Sequence record: PZ583742.1
Source of the DNA: a phage
DNA: 64,000 nt
Reading direction: 5' to 3' (one strand)
Below the pieces are notes generated by a model. It worked only from the letters and a program-made list of their open reading frames with translations, was not told the DNA's origin and did no database searches. Shown here piece after piece: positions 3,852 to 55,500 of the stretch. The position numbers were made by a program, and so were the translations under genes. Each line of letters opens with the position of its first letter. The first letter of the stretch is position 1.

Positions 3852-3875
3852 TGCTTTAAACAAGGATGTTATAAT
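3852..3875 (+). promoter_or_regulatory. MotA-box middle promoter candidate
   Basis: TGCTTTA 3852-3858, TATAAT 3870-3875. Confidence 0.45.
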
Positions 3876-4509: not shown

Positions 4510-5393
4510 ATTTGATTTATAAAATAACCTTTATAACAAGGGAACAAAATAATGAATTCCCTTGTTATTATATTGGTTCAAAGGTTGATACGACATTTAA
4601 TGGCCAAAATATTCTCGATAAAAATAATAAAATTTATACAGGTTCTCCGAATTCAAAATATACTACGCTGTATAATGAATTAATTGATAGCGGTGACTAT
4701 ATTGTTACTATCATTGGGGAAACAAAACAGGACCCAAGGAAAATAGAAAATATTTTTCAAATGTCAGTTAAAGCTGTAACCAATGAGAAATACTTTAATA
4801 AAACGTATGCACACGACAAAAGCCGCTATGATGCTCCTGGATATGCTCCATACCGAAACTTGAAAACGGGTAAAGTTGTTAAATTACATCCATCTGAACT
4901 TACATCTGATTATGTTGGTGTTCGTAAAGATTGTTCAATTTCAGATAAGCACATTCAAGCAATTAAAGACTTCCAAAAAGAATATTGGACTGACGAAGCT
5001 CGACAAGCAAGGTCTGTTGAAGTCAAAAATCGTTATAAAGATGTTGAGTATGCTTTAAAATTCAAAGCTATAATGAATACATCTGAAGTATATGAAAAAT
5101 ATTTAAAATCAATTACTGAATATTGGAATAATTCAGATAATAGAATAAAGGCTTCAAAACGAGCAACCGAACGAAATGCCAACCCTGAATTTAAAGAAAA
5201 ATTTAGGAAATCTAAAGCAAGAGGAACCTGGTTACAGTATGAAGATGAACTTAAAGCATTGTGGAATGCTTTAGGCCAACCAGGGTATATTAAGTTTAGA
5301 AAACACGCCATTGAACATGGGTTTAATGATGAAAACTATCAGGGTGCAATCCGGTCCTGGTCAAATTATTATGTTAATAGGAAAATGAAATGA
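4506..5393 (+). CDS. GIY-YIG-like homing endonuclease (Seg-like), free-standing
   Basis: N-terminal LIYKITF...CYYIGSK motif pair; AT-rich ORF wedged between conserved genes; GTG start. Confidence 0.5.
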   Translation: MNLIYKITFITREQNNEFPCYYIGSKVDTTFNGQNILDKNNKIYTGSPNSKYTTLYNELIDSGDYIVTIIGETKQDPRKIENIFQMSVKAVTNEKYFNKTYAHDKSRYDAPGYAPYRNLKTGKVVKLHPSELTSDYVGVRKDCSISDKHIQAIKDFQKEYWTDEARQARSVEVKNRYKDVEYALKFKAIMNTSEVYEKYLKSITEYWNNSDNRIKASKRATERNANPEFKEKFRKSKARGTWLQYEDELKALWNALGQPGYIKFRKHAIEHGFNDENYQGAIRSWSNYYVNRKMK

Positions 5394-20824: not shown

Positions 20825-20848
20825 TGCTTTAAACCAATACGATATAAT
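20825..20848 (+). promoter_or_regulatory. MotA-box middle promoter candidate for gene 56
   Basis: TGCTTTA 20825-20831, TATAAT 20843-20848. Confidence 0.45.
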
Positions 20849-31051: not shown

Positions 31052-31312
31052 ATGAAATACATTAATCGTTCTATTGCAGCACTGGTACTGGCGGTTTCAT
31101 TGGCTAGTTGTACTGATGCAGATAATGCCATTCGTGTATTAGATGCAAACGGCTATGAACAAATCCAAATCACCGGTTATAACTGGTTGGGTTGCTCTGA
31201 AGATGATTTCCAACACACAGGCTTTACGGCCGTAGGGCCAACTGGTAAGAAAGTTAAAGGAACTGTTTGTTCTGGATTGCTGTTTAAGAATTCAACCATT
31301 CGATTTGAATAA
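31052..31312 (+). CDS. predicted lipoprotein (86 aa)
   Basis: Signal peptide with lipobox LASC; GAGGA SD. Confidence 0.5.
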   Translation: MKYINRSIAALVLAVSLASCTDADNAIRVLDANGYEQIQITGYNWLGCSEDDFQHTGFTAVGPTGKKVKGTVCSGLLFKNSTIRFE

Positions 31313-31329
31313 GGCCTTCGGGCCTTTTT
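31312..31329 (+). terminator. intrinsic terminator (UUCG tetraloop)
   Basis: AGGCC-TTCG-GGCCT then TTTT. Confidence 0.55.
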
Positions 31330-31353
31330 GCTTTAAAATATGTGACTTATAAT
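31329..31353 (+). promoter_or_regulatory. MotA-box middle promoter candidate
   Basis: TGCTTTA 31329-31335, TATAAT 31348-31353. Confidence 0.45.
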
Positions 31354-31359
31354 ACCTCC

Positions 31360-32067
31360 ATGAACTTAAAACAATTTATTGAAGAAAATCTTTTAACTAA
31401 GAACCCGAATCGTCTTAACGGTAATTTGTTCAAAAATGATTTAGAATTTGCCAAGAAATTCTGGGAAAAATATCCAGAAGAAGCAAATGTCTTTAGAACA
31501 GAAGCACTGCATTGTCAAGGAGGTAAAAGAGACCAACATCCGTACAATGAGGTCTGCTACCGTATTTTACATGATATAAAAGGAAAAGTCTTATGTAAGT
31601 GTGGTAAACCTGTTAACTATCATACATTTGCTACTGGCTACCATGAATTTTGTTCCGTTAAATGTCAGGGTGGTGGTATATTTGAAGAAGAGCGTATTTG
31701 TCCTGTTTGCGATACTAAGTATATGGCTACGAATAGGACTCAAAAATATTGTTCAGATTCCTGTGGTAAAGAAGCAAGAGATACTCAATCACTGGACTTG
31801 CCATATAGTCATTCCATAAAGATGAAAAAGCGCGACGTTTTGAAGTTAATTGAGGATACTCCGTATTGTGAAATTTGTAAAATAAAACTAACAAACAATT
31901 CGACTTCTTTATCAAAAAGCACTTGGTTCAATGTAGACCATTGCCACTCGACTGGTAAAGTCCGAGGTATTTTATGTTCAAAATGCAACATAGGCCTAGG
32001 AATGTTTAAAGACAATATTGCTTCATTAGAAACTGCGATAGAATACTTGAAACAAAGCAAGGAATAA
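31360..32067 (+). CDS. endonuclease VII-like His-Me finger nuclease with N-terminal zinc fingers (putative homing endonuclease)
   Basis: C-terminal DHCHSTGKVRGILCSKCNIGLG; several Cys pairs; first ATG (31360) near the predicted transcript start, so start uncertain. Confidence 0.55.
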   Translation: MNLKQFIEENLLTKNPNRLNGNLFKNDLEFAKKFWEKYPEEANVFRTEALHCQGGKRDQHPYNEVCYRILHDIKGKVLCKCGKPVNYHTFATGYHEFCSVKCQGGGIFEEERICPVCDTKYMATNRTQKYCSDSCGKEARDTQSLDLPYSHSIKMKKRDVLKLIEDTPYCEICKIKLTNNSTSLSKSTWFNVDHCHSTGKVRGILCSKCNIGLGMFKDNIASLETAIEYLKQSKE

Positions 32068-32073
32068 TTGATT

Positions 32074-33906
32074 ATGATTGAAAATAAAATTGAAATGCTT
32101 TCAGATAAAGACCATTGTTTGAAACGTCCGGGAATGTACATCGGAAGTGTTTCATATGAAGAATACGAAAGATTTTTATTTGGTGAGTATACTAAAGTAT
32201 CTTATGTGGCGGGTGTATTAAAACTAGTTGATGAGATTATCGACAACTCGGTTGATGAAGCTATACGTACAAATTTCAAATTTGCCAATAAAATTTCCGT
32301 TGATATCTCTTTGACTGATAACAAAGTTACTGTTGAAGATAATGGTCGTGGTATTCCGCAGGCTGTTGTCATAACTCCAGAAGGTGAAGAATTACCTGGC
32401 CCTGTAGCGGCCTGGACGAAAACCAAAGCGGGTGGGAATTTCGGTGATGATAAAGAACGTGTAACCGGCGGCCAGAATGGTGTTGGTTCAAGTCTTACCA
32501 ATATTTTTTCAATCCTTTTTACTGGGACCACATCTGACGGTAAAAATGAGCTTCGTGTAAGTTGTTCAAATAATGCCGATAATGTATCATGGAAAACCAA
32601 ACCAACCAAATCCAATGGTACCAAGGTTGAGTTTATTCCAGACTTTAGTCATTTTGAAATGAACAGTTTTGATAAAATTTATCTGGATATTACACTTGAC
32701 CGTCTGCAGACTCTTGCTGTTGTTTATCCTGATATTGAATTCAAATTCAATGGTAAAAAGGTACAAGGTCAGTTTAAAAAGTTTGCTAAACAATATGATG
32801 ATGAAATCATTATCCAGGAACAAGATAATTGCTCAATTGCAATCGGTCGGTCACCTGACGGATTCAGACATCTGACATATGTCAACAACATCCACACAAA
32901 AAATGGTGGACACCATATTGAATGCGTTATGGATGAAATGTGTGATGTGTTAATCCCGGCGATTAAACGCAAGTATAAAATTGAAGTAACCAAAGCACGC
33001 GTTAAAGAATGTATTACATTGTTGATGTTTATTCGCAATATGAAGAACATGCGATTTGATTCCCAGACCAAGGAGCGATTGACTTCCACTGCCGGTGAAA
33101 TTAAATCACATATCCAGGTCAATGGCAAAAAGTTAGCTGGTTCGTTGTTAAAATCAGAAGCTATTCTGACGCCTATCATTGAAGCTGCATTGGCTCGTAA
33201 ATTGGCTGCAGAGAAAGCAGCAGAGACTAAAGCAAATAAGAAAGCTTCAAAGGCCAAGGTACAAAAGCATATCAAAGCCAACGAATGGGGTAATGATAAG
33301 CTGGAAACGACTCTATTCCTGACCGAAGGAGATTCTGCAACGGGTCCGTTTATCAAGGTTCGTGACCGTGAATTGCAAGGTGCTTATCCGTTACGTGGTA
33401 AGTTTAAAAACACATGGGGTCTGAAAGCTGTTGAAGTTATGAAGAACGCTGAAGCCTTTGATGTGTGTGCGATTACTGGTTTAACGATTGGACAACCGGC
33501 CGAGAATATGAATTACCGAAACATTGCTATCATGACAGATGCGGATGTGGATGGTGTTGGTAGTATCTATCCATCGTTATTGGCGTTTTTCAGTAACTGG
33601 CCAGAGCTGTTCCATGAAGGACGAATTCGCTTTGTGAAAACTCCTGTTATTATTGCACAGCTCAAAGATAAACAAGAATGGTTCTATTCTCTTCCTGATT
33701 ACGAAGAAGCTAAGGATAAACTTCCGAAGCATACCATTCGATATATCAAGGGGCTTGGTTCTCTGGAAGATTCAGAGTACAAACGCGTATTGCTCGAGCC
33801 AGTATTCGAAGTTGTTCAATTGCCCGACAATTGGAAAGAACTGTTCGAAATGCTATTCGGTAAAGATTCCCAGCAGCGTAAAGACTGGATGAATGCGACG
33901 CTATAA
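32074..33906 (+). CDS. 39: DNA topoisomerase II large subunit (gp39 with the gene-60 part contiguous)
   Basis: GyrB-like ATPase N-terminus, TOPRIM LTEGDSATGP; single 610-aa frame. Confidence 0.9.
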   Translation: MIENKIEMLSDKDHCLKRPGMYIGSVSYEEYERFLFGEYTKVSYVAGVLKLVDEIIDNSVDEAIRTNFKFANKISVDISLTDNKVTVEDNGRGIPQAVVITPEGEELPGPVAAWTKTKAGGNFGDDKERVTGGQNGVGSSLTNIFSILFTGTTSDGKNELRVSCSNNADNVSWKTKPTKSNGTKVEFIPDFSHFEMNSFDKIYLDITLDRLQTLAVVYPDIEFKFNGKKVQGQFKKFAKQYDDEIIIQEQDNCSIAIGRSPDGFRHLTYVNNIHTKNGGHHIECVMDEMCDVLIPAIKRKYKIEVTKARVKECITLLMFIRNMKNMRFDSQTKERLTSTAGEIKSHIQVNGKKLAGSLLKSEAILTPIIEAALARKLAAEKAAETKANKKASKAKVQKHIKANEWGNDKLETTLFLTEGDSATGPFIKVRDRELQGAYPLRGKFKNTWGLKAVEVMKNAEAFDVCAITGLTIGQPAENMNYRNIAIMTDADVDGVGSIYPSLLAFFSNWPELFHEGRIRFVKTPVIIAQLKDKQEWFYSLPDYEEAKDKLPKHTIRYIKGLGSLEDSEYKRVLLEPVFEVVQLPDNWKELFEMLFGKDSQQRKDWMNATL

Positions 33907-33909
33907 ATA
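33902..33909 (+). promoter_or_regulatory. late promoter motif TATAAATA
   Basis: Exact TATAAATA overlapping the gene 39 stop. Confidence 0.35.
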
Positions 33910-33912
33910 GAT

Positions 33913-33932
33913 ACGGGAGAATATTCTCCCGT
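33913..33932 (+). other. 20-bp perfect palindrome
   Basis: ACGGGAGAAT|ATTCTCCCGT, no T run. Confidence 0.6.
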
Positions 33933-33948
33933 CTTATAGGAGAAGTCC

Positions 33949-34101
33949 ATGAAAAAGTGGTGGGTTACGTTGTCAAATGGCGAATACGGTTATCTGTGGG
34001 CCGAGACTAAACCTCTGTTTGCATCCTTTGTCACCATTATGTGCGAGACCTGGGATGGTGAATACTATACCGCATATGGGCAAGTCTATAAAGTTGAGTA
34101 G
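33949..34101 (+). CDS. hypothetical small protein (50 aa)
   Basis: AGGAG SD then ATG; Trp/Tyr-rich. Confidence 0.35.
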   Translation: MKKWWVTLSNGEYGYLWAETKPLFASFVTIMCETWDGEYYTAYGQVYKVE

Positions 34102-34106
34102 CCAAA

Positions 34107-34128
34107 AGGACCTTCGGGTCCTTTTTTA
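34107..34128 (+). terminator. intrinsic terminator (UUCG tetraloop)
   Basis: AGGACC-TTCG-GGTCCT then TTTTTT. Confidence 0.6.
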
Positions 34129-34131
34129 TTA

Positions 34132-34160
34132 TGTACAAGCCACAAAAAGTGTGTTAATAT
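34132..34160 (+). promoter_or_regulatory. early sigma70 promoter
   Basis: TGTACA, 17-nt spacer, TAATAT with TG upstream. Confidence 0.5.
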
Positions 34161-34177
34161 GTCTTTGAGGTGAAAAT

Positions 34178-41769: not shown

Positions 41770-43149
41770 ATGTCTGACGTTTTAAGTATGATGTCCAAAC
41801 AGTTCAGTGATTCCGTGGGGACCCTTAACCCACGCAGTCTAAAAGACATTATTGATGTGGAAGCATTGTCATATGCTATCTACACTGTGGAAGGTCGTGC
41901 CATCCCAAACATGATTGATGGTTTTAAACCAGTTCACAGATTTGTTATGGCGAGAGCATTAGACCTGGCTCGTGGTGATAAGAATAAATTCCATAAGGTT
42001 GCATCCATCGCAGGTGGCGTAGCTGATTATGGTTATCACCATGGCGAAGCATCAGCGGAAGAAGCAACTTCTGGTCTGGTCGCAACATATAAAAATGAAT
42101 ACCCCATGTTTGATGGACAAGGCAACTTTGGTTCCAGAATGGTGCCAGAAGCATCATCAGCTCGTTATGTATTCGCAAGGGTTTCAAAGAACTTTTATAA
42201 CTTGTTTAAGGATACAGAATATGCTCCGGTCCATCCTGATGAAGAACATAAGCCTCCTGCTTTTTATCTTCCTGTTATTCCTACTGTATTACTTAACGCC
42301 ACTTCTGGGATTGCTGTTGGCTTCGCTACTGATATACTTCCTCATTCGTTCCAGGACGTCAAGGAAGCTGTTAAAGCTATCGTGGAAGGTCGTGAGCCGG
42401 TTGCTCCGAAAGTAAAATATCCAGAATTCCGCGGTGAAGTTGTTGAGCTGGAAGAGCCTGGTAAGTATGAGCTTCATGGCACATACAAAATGACTTCCCG
42501 GACTCAAATGGAAATTACTGAAATCCCGGTCCAATGGAACCTGGAAAAATATACAAGTAAAATACTTGACCCGCTGGAAGAGAAAGGTTTTATCACCTGG
42601 AAAGATAACTGCGGTGAACATGGTTTTGGGTTTAAGATTAAATTCCGCAAAGAATACAAGTTGGATGGCACTGAAGAAGAGAATCATGAGAAAATCATGA
42701 AAGACTTTGGTCTGATTGAGAAACTCTCCCAGAACTTAACTGTGCTTAATCACAAAGGCAAATTAGCTGAATACACCAACACGCTTGACCTGATTCGCGA
42801 TTTCGTGGATGTCCGTAAGACCTATGTTCAAGTGCGAATTGACAGCAAGATTAAAGAAACTGAAGCGGCATTTAAACTGGCCCGTGCGAAAGTCTTCTTT
42901 ATTAAAGAAGTGATTGATGGTAAGGTTATTATCCAGGGGAAACCTCGTAAGAAGTTGATTGAGGAACTCCAGGCGAGTGAAATATATGGCGATTATGCAG
43001 AGAAGTTAGTGGCGATGAACATCTACCATATGACCTCTGATGAAGCCAAGAAGCTTGCAGACGAAGCAAAGGCTAAGAAAGCTGAGCATGAGTACTGGAA
43101 GACAACTGATGTTAAAACTGAATACCTTAATGATTTGGAGGCTCTATGA
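41770..43149 (+). CDS. 52: DNA topoisomerase II medium subunit gp52 (GyrA-like)
   Basis: AIPNMIDGFKPVHRFVMARALDL and C-terminal EYWKTTDV match T4 gp52; 459 aa. Confidence 0.92.
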   Translation: MSDVLSMMSKQFSDSVGTLNPRSLKDIIDVEALSYAIYTVEGRAIPNMIDGFKPVHRFVMARALDLARGDKNKFHKVASIAGGVADYGYHHGEASAEEATSGLVATYKNEYPMFDGQGNFGSRMVPEASSARYVFARVSKNFYNLFKDTEYAPVHPDEEHKPPAFYLPVIPTVLLNATSGIAVGFATDILPHSFQDVKEAVKAIVEGREPVAPKVKYPEFRGEVVELEEPGKYELHGTYKMTSRTQMEITEIPVQWNLEKYTSKILDPLEEKGFITWKDNCGEHGFGFKIKFRKEYKLDGTEEENHEKIMKDFGLIEKLSQNLTVLNHKGKLAEYTNTLDLIRDFVDVRKTYVQVRIDSKIKETEAAFKLARAKVFFIKEVIDGKVIIQGKPRKKLIEELQASEIYGDYAEKLVAMNIYHMTSDEAKKLADEAKAKKAEHEYWKTTDVKTEYLNDLEAL

Positions 43150-43577: not shown

Positions 43578-44186
43578 GTGAACAAGTTAAATTATATCGT
43601 TAAATGCTCCCAGAACGCTCTACATGAGACTGATGTTAATGCTCTGGTGTTTGTATACAAAAACAACTTTGTGAGTCCAGAAGTTGTTTTAGACCAGCAG
43701 AACACATCAATTGATAGTGTACAGACATTGTTGAATAACAACTATGTTGAAGCTTCCGGTGATGGTTTGATGGTTACAGAAAAAGGTGTTGACCTTATTC
43801 TGGATGCAGCAGAATTGTGGGCGAATGAAAATAATCCCGACCTTCTGGAAGTGAAGAAGACAAGAACAAAACGCGGTGTGACTGATGAAATGGAAGCGAC
43901 TGCAGAATATATCAAAGAGCAATTATTGTCTATTGGTATTGACTTTAAGAGCATTTCAGAAGACCGCAGCAATCTGATTGTGAAGTTCAAGCGTATCAAG
44001 ACATTAAAACAGATTGATGTACGTCGTGATGGTCAGATTCGTGTGCATGCGTATAATACTGAACAAAAGATAGTAAAACAGTTTACAGACGTGGGATTTA
44101 GCGTTAAAGTAGGTGGATTGAATACCTACATTGACAATCATATGTCAACTGAAAACATTCAACATGTTATTAACATCTTAAAGTGA
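43578..44186 (+). CDS. motA: middle-transcription activator MotA
   Basis: ASGDGLMVTEKG and C-terminal VKQFTDVGFSVKV...TENIQHVINIL match T4 MotA; GTG start. Confidence 0.8.
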   Translation: MNKLNYIVKCSQNALHETDVNALVFVYKNNFVSPEVVLDQQNTSIDSVQTLLNNNYVEASGDGLMVTEKGVDLILDAAELWANENNPDLLEVKKTRTKRGVTDEMEATAEYIKEQLLSIGIDFKSISEDRSNLIVKFKRIKTLKQIDVRRDGQIRVHAYNTEQKIVKQFTDVGFSVKVGGLNTYIDNHMSTENIQHVINILK

Positions 44187-45604: not shown

Positions 45605-45880
45605 ATGACTAAATTTGAAATCGTTTCTGAAATTGTTACTATAACTTCAATTTTGATTAAAACCGACCGGGAAGATATTACGATGAAGCGTGATGTGTTT
45701 ATCGCGTTTTTGAATGAGTTGGGATTGAGAAATGAGAATGGGAATGAGTTAAACAATGTATCGTTTAACAAGTTGTTTAAAAGTTTATCTGAAGATGAAA
45801 TTGAACAAATCATTGAACAATTTAACGAAGGATTCGAAGATATACACCGTTATCTTATGATGTATACCTCCGGATTCTAA
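45605..45880 (+). CDS. asiA: anti-sigma70 factor AsiA
   Basis: SEIVTITSILIKTDREDI...FIAFLNELG...FNEGFEDIHRYLMMYT matches T4 AsiA. Confidence 0.85.
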   Translation: MTKFEIVSEIVTITSILIKTDREDITMKRDVFIAFLNELGLRNENGNELNNVSFNKLFKSLSEDEIEQIIEQFNEGFEDIHRYLMMYTSGF

Positions 45881-52573: not shown

Positions 52574-55500
52574 TTATTCAACCCATTCAAACTTAACGGA
52601 TTTAGTGGTCGGGTCTGGGATGATGCGCACGTTACCGATACGCAACCAATCGAGAATGGTTAAGTTCCCCATTGTTGTGTTGTCGGCCGGTAATGCACCA
52701 ACATCCTCTGCAGACGGAGGGTTATCCGCGGTGTAAACCATTGCAAAAGTCGTCCATGCAGATTTATTTTTCTGCCATGTACGAGTATAACGAATAGTAC
52801 CACCGTTCAATCCAGTTGGATAACACACCCAATCCTGATAACATGAATCCAATGTATTACCAAACTGAGTTAACGTACCAGGGTATTTAACTTCCTTATC
52901 ACGAACCGAATAGTCAAACCAGGTTCCGCGCAGTTTTTGGCCAGAGCTACCTAATACTTCATCACCGAGTGTACCATCGTCATTACGATAACGAATAACA
53001 GGCGAGGCGAAAGTTCCATTTTCAGTTAACCAACCAGAAGCATTCCAAACTTCATCAGTTACCCCAGCAGGTTTAGTTTGAACTGTATCAATGTTTACCT
53101 GACGTTTTAACTTCATTGTCCAATAACCAGGGAACTGACTATAAGTCGGTTCATCATTGATATCGACAGACCAGAAGCCAACAGTATCTGCAGTCGGAGC
53201 TTGTGCGATAAGACTTGGTTTCGTACCGAATACACGGACCGGAGCATTCACATGGAGCACACCAGACATTGTATCACCGCCTTGGTTAACAAAGTTTCTA
53301 TCTACAATCTCAACAGCGTTTTTCTCGGTCAGGACTTTAAATGCACCGCCACCATTTGCTATGATATTACCAGCATCAAGAGTTTTAAGCACTAAATTCT
53401 GCGAGTTATCACCCAGAGCCAGAGTTGCACCAGAAGCTTCACCCGTTGTGGTTGCGATAGTACGACCATTTAGAACGTAATTATTTTTGGCTTGAACATC
53501 ATTTCCGGCGCTAAGGTTGTTCAGTACAGCAGCATTACCCGAGGCGGTGTTTAATGTCAATACGTTAGTCGTATCGCCAATAGTCATTGTCGTTCCGGTG
53601 GAAGGAGCGGTGATTTTCCACTTGTTAGTTCCGTTAACAACGTTCACAGTTCCGAACGTCGAAGTGCCAGCCGTTACATCAGTAAACACTGCAGTGCTCG
53701 TCGATACAACCGGAGCAGATATATTTGTCTGTTTGGTAAGAGTTAACACACCTTCAACAGTCTGAGCAATATCACGACGAATAAACTGGGTCGAATCAAG
53801 GTTATCCAGTTTTTCAGCATTAACAGCCATCGCATTTATCGGTAGGAAGTTTTGCAATACGCGGTTTAATTCGTAAGGTGAAACTGCATATCCAGATTTT
53901 GCGTAGCTAACCAGTTTACTTGGGTCCGGAGTATACACGCCATTTGCATATGTAAATCCTGCACCAGTCGTTGTAGTTGCGGCCGAAGTAGCTGTACCAG
54001 AAGATAAACGAACAAATCCACGTAGGGTTTCAGATGCTTCCCAGGTTGTTTCCGTTTGTGCAATATATTTCAGCGCTGACGGACTGATGGCCAAGACTTT
54101 TGATGTACCTGCTGTTGCTTCTGCGTTTGTCGCGATGCGAACAATACCTTCGGCATTTTCAGTGGCTTTTTTCGACATCAATTTAAGCGGGGTAACGATT
54201 GTTTTATCGTCAGTGCCGGTATTGACTTCACCCTGAGTTGCTAATCTTGCCGTACCACGCTGAGTCTCATTTGCTTCAAGAATATTCAGGCTATAATGGT
54301 CCCAGAGCGTCCCTGTTTCTACTAAACCACTTAATGCATTAACAGAAGTACGAGCAGTATTATTAAATCTATTTTTAATTTTTAATGGAGTTGAGATACG
54401 AGTATCATCAGTTCCAGTATCAAATTCTGATTGCGTAGCAATCTCGGCTATGCCGGTTAACGTTTCTGATGCTTTACGGTCATTTAACGTTTTAGGAGTC
54501 ACAGCTCTGGTATAATCGGTTCCTGCATCTGTTTCCACTTGAGTTGCAATCTCGATTAAACCGATACGGGAATCAAGAGCAGTTTTGCGATGTAACATTT
54601 CTGGAGTAACGACTGCGTTTGCCCATCCAGATTGAGAAGTACCAGCAATTACTTCACTTTCAACCGCAAGAATAACCGCACCTTGTTGGGTGTAAGTAGC
54701 TTTGTACTGGTCAAGAGCTTTCGGAGAAACAACCAGATTAACCGTATTTTTATTATAAACGTTTGTACCATTTAATTCACGCGAAGCAGCAGGAGTTGCA
54801 CCGGTTGTTGAAACGTAAGTTACAATACCAGATAGCGATTCTGAGCCCTGGCGCGCTTGTAGTTTCTTCGGAGTGATAATTGTGGTATCATCTACACCTG
54901 CATCGGTTTCTTGCTGTGTGGCGAGTTCTGCGAGCCCACGTCTCGTTTCTGTTGCCGTACGTTCATTGAGTTTTTTCGGAGAAATAATTACATCATCAAC
55001 AAATGCAAAATCGCTGTTCTGATTTACTTGAGCAGTCGTTGCGATTCTGGCAATACCTCGTTGGTTCTCTTTAGCAACACGGTTGGCCAAAGTCTGAGGG
55101 GTAATTGCAAGTTCTTTCTCTGGGTTATTTTCATGGTCAACGTTTGCCTGAGTCTGGTTTGCCAGAGCAATAACACCAAGACGTGCGCGCGTGGAATCAT
55201 TTAATGAGTCAACTCGTTCGACAGTCGGGACGTTCTGAGCGACAACCCAATAACTTGTTCCAGACACTGTATCTTCTGCATATGATAATTCAATAACCGG
55301 AGTATAACTGATGTTGCCATTAAAGGTCAATGAATCAACCAACACCCAAGTTGTATCTGGTGGATACTCGGAACGTTTAGGGAATTGCAGCAATTTAATG
55401 TCAGATGCAATCTTATCGCCAACAGCAGCTCTTATATTAACAGTCTGCGATTTACGGAGATAGTTCAATGCAATTTTAACAATGTCACCTTGTAAAACAT

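Follow-up and report, generated by a model that had tools for sequence, protein, structure and literature searches.

Within a 64,000-nt stretch of phage DNA (record PZ583742.1; the whole stretch is called the window below, and all positions refer to it unless a locus is named), an open reading frame (ORF) of 235 codons is located directly upstream of gene 39, which encodes the large subunit of DNA topoisomerase II. Comparison with related phages makes it likely that this ORF is a free-standing homing endonuclease gene (HEG) with the Endo VII motif (DHHRN family), which would home to the 5′ end of gene 39. The window belongs to the Gaprivervirus group of T4-like phages, with vB_EcoM_RZ (RZ in the following; 95.5% identity over 3.4 kb) and VR26 as the nearest records, and its genes around this site follow each other on the + strand as motB, cef, goF, 39.2, 39.1, the nuclease ORF, gene 39, two small ORFs and rIIA (Table 1). 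Sporadic presence, a precise junction and a linked divergent tract in gene 39 give the locus a clear homing-type history, as had been suspected in the original prediction for this DNA. The kind of element is already known, and a homologue has been predicted in print: gp6 of phage VR7, which is 49% identical to the protein of the window and encoded at the same genomic position, was assigned to the endonuclease clade, with a predicted function as a free-standing homing endonuclease (Fang et al., 2018; PMC6083498).

The nuclease ORF begins with the ATG at 31360, which is common to RZ and VR26; an in-frame GTG at 31342 lies inside the promoter and is unconserved in relatives. The His-Me finger signature that the original prediction had read in the ORF ending at 32067 is present: the motif DHCHSTGKVRGILCSKCN is encoded by positions 31936 to 31989, and the Pfam family Endonuclease_7 (PF02945) matches residues 165 to 231 of 235 with E = 5.2e-18, which is far beyond chance. 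PHROG endonuclease VII families match the ORF as well. The N-terminal cysteine pairs named in the same prediction do exist, but they are found in the middle of the protein (C79/C81 with C98/C102 and C114/C117 with C131/C135). In alignments of 10 and of 24 sequences, C170-x2-C173, D193, H194, H196, R202, C206-x2-C209 and N210 are invariant and correspond to the catalytic pattern of the DHHRN homing endonucleases (CX2-4C ... D-H-x-H ... R ... CX2C-N). This family was named after the characterization of F-CphI (Fang et al., Mob DNA 2018; PMC6083498). As in its endonuclease clade, the Endo VII motif of the window protein is located C-terminally, unlike in the resolvase clade, where it is N-terminal.

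An AlphaFold2 model calculated from the 24-sequence alignment has a mean pLDDT of 88 and comprises three parts. For the helical domain of residues 1 to 78, which is limited to the gene-39-associated subfamily, structure comparison gave no match; it presumably contributes to target recognition. It is followed by two tandem zinc ribbons of the FCS/YacG type, presumed to form a DNA-binding module, and by the C-terminal ββα-Me nuclease domain. For residues ~133 to 232, the restriction enzyme Hpy99I was the best match by both sequence and structure, and it is also the best solved relative of the protein (E = 6.8e-8), while T4 endonuclease VII reached just E = 0.3.

The protein is under strong purifying selection, as judged by a dN/dS of 0.01 to 0.15 between close pairs; the nucleases of the window and RZ differ by one amino-acid change at pS = 0.19. 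An exact-sequence look-up of the window protein in a large protein collection gave no entry, and a match of 100% identity over 235 residues (UPI001E7C63BD) was found in BFVD. Near-identical database proteins are labelled "putative endonuclease" or "endonuclease VII". The nuclease gene occupies an intergenic position next to a gene 39 that is collinear with its homologues, and it therefore lies outside any intron or intein. Between 30800 and 34300, no Rfam family was found at E ≤ 1, neither a group I intron nor another RNA family, and a tblastn search detected no second Endo VII-type gene in the 64-kb window.

The nuclease gene is present in four of about 27 distinct Gaprivervirus phages that match the region, namely RZ, VR26 and TH15 with 91 to 99.6% identity and VR7 with the 49% variant. 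In Krischvirus (RB49-like phages), a copy of 44% identity is located directly upstream of gene 39 in 13 of 59 records. In addition, four full-length homologues on metagenomic contigs (45 to 76% identity among the contigs examined) all directly precede a topoisomerase gene, so that in every examined locus the nuclease gene stands immediately 5′ of gene 39. The empty sites in VR20 and the Yersinia phage P8 read ...TGCTTTAAAATATGTGACTTATAATACCTCCAT directly followed by ACACAAGAGGAAAGATGATG, which is gene 39. For the window, VR26 and VR7, CCTCCAT marks the exact end of identity to these empty sites, and the endonuclease ORF takes over from there. Judged from these alignments, the left junction of the cassette is precise to the base.

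The nuclease gene is always accompanied by a sharply bounded, divergent tract at the beginning of its neighbour. Over its first ~1.1 kb, gene 39 of the window, RZ and VR26 is only 68 to 70% identical to that of the nuclease-less phages SP18, VR20 and P8, whereas 92 to 98% identity to the same phages is seen on both sides of the tract, in the genes upstream and in what remains of gene 39. The right edge of this tract, referred to as allele B, was read from the alignment near nt 33180 and is the same in all three phages. At ≥90% identity, allele B was found in nuclease-carrying phages only, and it is equally distant from the native allele A and from T4. The best outsiders (Dhakavirus Bp7 and IME281, Mosigvirus-like phages and others) are only ~76 to 77% identical to allele B, and the donor is therefore unsampled. 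The module puts the window together with VR26, whereas the flanks pair the window with SP18 and VR26 with VR7, and this discordance indicates horizontal spread within Gaprivervirus.

The same linkage recurs in Krischvirus. Between JEP8, which carries the nuclease gene, and RB49, which lacks it, the upstream region is 98% identical, nt 1 to 700 of gene 39 are 66 to 86% identical and the remainder is 97 to 99% identical; on this comparison, the 0.7-kb tract appears as an independent replicate of the linkage. In the Krischvirus phage G37-3, which lacks the endonuclease gene, gene 39 nevertheless follows the nuclease-linked allele from about nt 9 onwards; a repair tract that ended short of the nuclease gene would be expected to leave this product. 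The most telling case, in our reading of the alignments, is the pair VR7 and VR20: 18 substitutions fall into nt 1 to 60 of gene 39, where they alter 8 codons silently and 3 by conservative replacement, and the next 210 nt have none. Such dense silent recoding hard against the insertion has the look of target-site immunity, and the first ~60 nt of gene 39 are the likely recognition region.

A second polymorphic block was noticed at ~33871 to 34170, which covers the gene 39 stop codon, an ORF at 33949 to 34101 and a hairpin at 34104 to 34125. It occurs in two allele classes of ~73% identity, one in the window, RZ, VR26, P479 and P8 and the other in VR7, SP18 and VR20.

Taken together, the following course of events is proposed. 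In a mixed infection, the nuclease would bind via its N-terminal domain and the two zinc ribbons, and its ββα-Me domain would nick or cut the gene 39 allele of the endonuclease-less phage, probably within the first ~60 nt. Phage recombination would then repair the break from the carrier genome, whereby the nuclease gene and an adjacent stretch of gene 39 would be copied. The carrier itself would be immune because the 5′ end of its own gene 39 is recoded or replaced. In the window, the mobile unit would measure ~1.8 kb (31362 to ~33180), including 1.1 kb of gene 39 at a divergence of the inter-genus level. As the cassette sits at the predicted start of the gene 39 middle transcript, the nuclease would be made at a low level, most likely from a leaderless mRNA that begins with the AUG, and a second MotA-type promoter at the 3′ end of the cassette would return the essential gene 39 to expression in the middle mode.

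This view of expression is built on two matches to the middle-promoter consensus, (a/t)3TGCTTtA-N11-13-TAnnnT, in which the −10 element is numbered from −12 to −7 (PMC1524935). The first is the native promoter of gene 39, which is identical in the nuclease-less phages VR20, P8 and SP18 and stands there 22 nt before gene 39. The hairpin that closes 39.1 also precedes the gene 39 promoter in the empty-site phages and in T4, and the layout of a terminator followed by a Mot box is shared with the region upstream of gene 39 in T4. The second match lies within the 3′ coding end of the nuclease gene and is presumed to be a replacement middle promoter for gene 39. In the whole window, 12 occurrences of the Mot-box pattern were found compared to 1.3 expected (nine-fold), ten of them on the + strand. 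Further matches are located, for example, at 3852 to 3875, 5051 to 5074, 20825 to 20848 and 54272 to 54297.

The original prediction had placed the first ATG near the predicted transcript start of a MotA-box promoter, and it was indeed found 6 nt past the −10 element TATAAT. This distance is exactly 6 nt in eight loci (window, RZ, VR26, VR7 and the metagenomic loci L014, L019 and L016/L017), which are all loci having an upstream Mot-box promoter. They comprise four spacer sequences and five distinct nuclease variants with 47 to 76% identity to the window protein. With the −10 element at −12 to −7, the A of the nuclease ATG therefore falls on the predicted +1. In the window, this ATG has no Shine-Dalgarno sequence in front of it. 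From this arrangement we infer that the middle mRNA of the nuclease would be leaderless, leading to low-level expression, and that read-through early transcripts would be poorly translated for the nuclease.

The embedded Mot-box promoter is found 25 to 29 nt before gene 39 in nine of nine Tevenvirinae-type loci, in three amino-acid contexts. One of these, the metagenomic locus L018 (3440 to 3510; 45% identity), lacks the upstream Mot box, and its nuclease ORF starts with a codon other than ATG behind a GAGGA ribosome-binding site. In the two Krischvirus copies, neither the 6-nt-spaced upstream promoter nor the embedded promoter is present, and a Shine-Dalgarno sequence with a GTG start is found instead. 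RB49 is reported to lack any recognisable motA or middle promoters (PMC1524935), and for Krischvirus as a group no motA orthologue has been found. Embedded promoters for downstream essential genes are known from the seg and mob ORFs of T4 (PMC2988022), and by analogy the embedded gene 39 promoter would fit this established pattern. An AUG held at +1 of a MotA promoter in five variants, leaderless translation and a Mot box brought by the cassette for gene 39 might together amount to a "promoter-capture" design, with the element also acting as a vehicle that swaps the whole ATPase-domain-coding part of the topoisomerase gene between phage genera; this broader interpretation is put forward tentatively and may well prove wrong. 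No description of such a design was found for phage homing endonuclease genes.

Despite an overall protein identity of 49%, the first 45 nt of the nuclease ORF (31360 to 31404) are identical to those of VR7 (locus L002, 2067 to 2111). This suggests recombination between the 5′ ends of the two variants or a constraint on the 5′ coding end, e.g. from leaderless initiation. Sequestration of the start codon by RNA structure was considered and rejected: beyond the terminator hairpin, the fold was no better than that of shuffled sequences.

Gene 39 itself is not split. T4 gp39 and gp60 align end to end on gp39 of the window (residues 1 to 473 of T4 gp39 on 1 to 476, residues 28 to 159 of gp60 on 476 to 607, with 69 to 70% identity), and therefore neither a split nor a bypass is present, in agreement with the continuous frame of 610 amino acids described before. 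An alternative start of gene 39 is the TTG at 32068. The T4 39/60 junction corresponds to residue ~476 and nt ~33499 in the window; it lies 1.43 kb beyond the nuclease stop codon, in the downstream direction, and 2.1 kb separate it from the left junction of the cassette. The view that the nuclease is poised at the site where the T4 gene is disrupted thus had to be abandoned. The insertion site of the T4 element MobA has been reported as residues 466 to 473 of the topoisomerase large subunit (bioRxiv 10.1101/2022.08.31.505936), in agreement with the aligned split position. Gene 39 is continuous over ~33478 to 33501, and no similarity was detected when the nuclease was compared by tblastn with the T4 mobA region (rIIA to dexA); homology to MobA, an insertion at residues 466 to 473, gene splitting and a bypass are all lacking here. 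Gene 39 is likewise unsplit in each of the eight Gaprivervirus loci and in the Krischvirus, Dhakavirus Bp7 and metagenome loci examined, and its unsplit state here therefore says nothing about the nuclease. For these reasons, the distance of 1.43 kb and the unrelated MobA, a link between the nuclease and the T4 39/60 split was rejected.

The 5′ end of gene 39 is a hot spot of HEG insertion that is separate from the T4 split site. The Escherichia phage P479 carries a GIY-YIG HEG of 265 amino acids with NUMOD3 and I-TevI DNA-binding domains at the same site (locus L007, 2083 to 2880). Inserted behind the fourth codon of gene 39, this HEG uses the ribosome-binding site and start codon of that gene (ATGATGATTAAT followed by GAAGTA...) as its own, and it is accompanied by a third 5′ allele of gene 39. 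In Dhakavirus Bp7, the 39.1/39 junction has a third unrelated occupant, EpBp7_0131 (locus L013, 1328 to 2008), an ORF of 226 amino acids between 39.1 and gene 39 that overlaps the gene 39 start. Its NUMOD3 repeats and YIGST motif give it a Seg/GIY-YIG-like look, and its RefSeq label is "HNH endonuclease". At the other end of the gene, two endonuclease-like ORFs, one with HNH_3 and AP2 domains in the Krischvirus phage G37-3 (locus L012, 4769 to 5332) and one of 275 amino acids with a weak NUMOD3 match (locus L014, 3664 to 4491) lie directly after the gene 39 3′ end or overlap it. The places at which gene 39 seems to be targeted are therefore its 5′ end, residue ~470 (MobA) and its 3′ end.

Several points weigh against a homing function. 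The case is entirely comparative, for the nuclease as well as for its whole gene-39-associated subfamily, and a strict association with gene 39 in every lineage would also be expected from a functional partnership. The block at ~33871 to 34170 contains no endonuclease ORF and does not co-segregate with the nuclease gene, and T4-like genomes are mosaic anyway; since mosaicism occurs here without an endonuclease gene, the divergent tract alone is no proof of endonuclease-driven conversion. The divergence of 30% implies an unsampled donor, and the spread within the genus could be a single introgression followed by ordinary recombination. The promoters and the leaderless start are read from consensus matches, the embedded −10 element partly overlaps a conserved I-E-Y coding motif, and the fold of the RNA around the start does not stand out from shuffled sequences (z = −0.55).

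In a rival explanation, the nuclease is real and conserved but a passenger or a competition weapon: the module would have entered once from another phage and been moved by ordinary homologous recombination, with a role in the degradation or exclusion of co-infecting relatives or another role without biased inheritance. Mosaicism in the downstream block, the common right tract boundary in the window, RZ and VR26, which fits one introgression, and strong purifying selection, which fits any useful function, are all compatible with it. However, the architecture recurs in a second genus, Krischvirus, with another tract length, and two unrelated GIY-YIG-type genes occupy the same few dozen bp in P479 and Bp7. 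Moreover, the VR7 tract is just 60 nt long, mostly synonymous and abuts the insertion, which is the signature expected of target-site immunity and not of random mosaicism, and marker exclusion and homing are one mechanism in T-even phages (PMC2988022). This explanation is accordingly regarded as unlikely.

For the nuclease as a conserved, non-mobile paralogue of the Holliday-junction resolvase gp49 of T4, with a function in recombination or packaging, a possibility that had been raised together with the original prediction, the Endo VII zinc site and His-Me catalytic core held in common and the database label "endonuclease VII" can be cited. But the gene is missing from most members of each genus, its motif is C-terminal as in the endonuclease clade, and VR7 has a separate protein of the resolvase clade, gp81, according to Fang et al. 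(2018; PMC6083498). Full-length similarity including the C-terminal dimerisation domain of gp49 was not found, nor was conservation across the genus. On the basis of distribution, domain position and the weak match to T4 endonuclease VII, this explanation was rejected and is considered very improbable. The adjacency of the two genes would be accounted for if the nuclease were tied to the topoisomerase, for example by YacG-like zinc ribbons that bind or modulate the GyrB-like gp39. The structural matches behind this idea are at noise level for a zinc ribbon of 36 residues, and the region also matches generic FCS fingers; the YacG resemblance was thus rejected as too weak to support gyrase binding. 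Most relatives manage without the nuclease gene, an intact and constrained nuclease active site would be needless for such a role, and we attach hardly any weight to it. A homing endonuclease directed to gene 39 remains the preferred reading.

Among the known systems, F-CphI of cyanophage S-PM2 comes close to the window nuclease, as does VR7 gp6: all have a C-terminal CX2C...DH.H...R...CX2C-N module and stand free beside a conserved target gene. F-CphI differs by a length of ~130 to 180 amino acids, by its target psbA beside a group I intron and by cutting through sequential nicks (Fang et al., 2018; PMC6083498). The window nuclease, which is known from its sequence alone, has in addition the 78-residue N-terminal domain, two FCS-type ribbons and the association with gene 39, and it has no intron. 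In the phylogenetic-analysis and catalytic-domain sections of Fang et al. (2018; PMC6083498) and at the terms searched in that paper, no target gene, linked allele or promoter arrangement is mentioned for VR7 gp6.

T4 MobA is likewise an HEG that exploits the topoisomerase II large-subunit gene and spreads with flanking host sequence. The T4 MobA/gene 60 cassette is reportedly the subject of work by Bonocora and co-workers from 2011. MobA is a classical HNH protein without detectable similarity to the window nuclease, and it is inserted inside the ORF, splits the gene and carries a 50-nt bypass (10.1101/2022.08.31.505936), whereas the element of the window lies 1.4 kb upstream and outside the ORF and leaves gene 39 whole. 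In its organisation, it resembles the seg and mob genes of T4, such as segG before gene 32 and MobE at nrdA/nrdB. Both are intergenic beside an essential gene of DNA metabolism, with a cleavage site presumed in the neighbour gene, co-conversion of the flank, a promoter of the downstream essential gene inside the ORF and a weak or absent ribosome-binding site (PMC2988022). The window nuclease differs in belonging to another nuclease family and in a start codon held at the +1 predicted for a middle promoter, an arrangement suggestive of leaderless translation. A start at +1 or a "leaderless" arrangement is not mentioned for T4 endonuclease genes in the review PMC2988022.

With its nearest solved structures, Hpy99I (3fc3) and T4 endonuclease VII (1e7d/2qnf), the window nuclease shares the ββα-Me fold and structural zinc. 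Hpy99I pairs with a methylase in Helicobacter. T4 endonuclease VII resolves junctions as a dimer, and its C-terminal dimerisation domain is lacking in the window nuclease.

The element adds a well-delimited case to the free-standing HEGs of T4-like phages. The pair VR7 and VR20 narrows the predicted target region to the first ~60 nt of gene 39, and relatives with and without the nuclease gene (e.g. VR7, VR26, VR20 and SP18) have already been isolated and sequenced. Gene 39 would also illustrate how an HEG can carry kilobase-sized pieces of an essential enzyme gene, divergent at the level between genera, into new genomes, and the fixed +1 start codon bears on leaderless translation as a control of endonuclease expression. 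Moderately fresh are only the hot spot at the gene 39 5′ end, which is occupied by at least three unrelated endonuclease genes apart from the T4 39/60 site, the length of the hitch-hiking tract with its degree of divergence, and a start codon conserved at +1. None of these findings overturns the current understanding.

Table 1. Features of the nuclease locus and of the middle-promoter system in the window.
Feature	Position	Strand	Remarks
Intrinsic-terminator-like hairpin	31311..31328	+	AAGGCCTTCGGGCCTT and T-run; closes 39.1; native flank, outside the cassette; from a terminator scan
Native MotA-type middle promoter of gene 39	31329..31353	+	Mot box TGCTTTA 31329-31335, 12 nt, −10 TATAAT 31348-31353; predicted +1 at ~31360
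Left junction of the cassette	31359..31361	+	identity with empty sites stops after ...TATAATACCTCCAT; the cassette gives the G of the ATG
Nuclease ORF	31360..32067	+	235 aa; predicted free-standing homing endonuclease gene, Endo VII-motif (DHHRN) family
N-terminal helical domain, aa 1-78	31360..31593	+	limited to the gene-39-associated subfamily
Two tandem FCS/YacG-type zinc ribbons	31594..31764	+	C79, C81, C98, C102 and C114, C117, C131, C135
ββα-Me (Endo VII-type) nuclease domain	31852..32052	+	zinc ligands C170, C173, C206, C209; catalytic D193, H194, H196, R202, N210
Embedded MotA-type promoter match	32019..32044	+	TGCTTCA-N13-TAGAAT in the 3′ coding end of the nuclease gene; gene 39 ATG 29 nt downstream
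Divergent 5′ tract of gene 39 (allele B)	32068..33180	+	with the nuclease gene, a putative imported module of ~1.8 kb
Gene 39, DNA topoisomerase II large subunit, unsplit	32074..33906	+	610 aa, ATG 32074; Pfam HATPase_c, DNA_gyraseB, TOPRIM_C
Counterpart of the T4 39/60 split and MobA insertion site	33478..33501	+	intact here; outside the element
motA	43578..44177	+	trans-acting activator for Mot-box promoters; tblastn with T4 MotA; Pfam MotA_activ, MotCF
asiA	45623..45871		tblastn with T4 AsiA

Between the stop codon of 39.1 and the terminator and promoter, an ORF of 132 to 137 amino acids was observed in SP18 (locus L001, 2024 to 2422) and RZ (locus L003, 2009 to 2422), which is similar to RB69ORF005c and has no Pfam match. 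It varies independently of the nuclease gene: RZ has both, SP18 has that ORF only and the window has the nuclease gene only. In the window, gp52 is encoded at 41824 to 43146.

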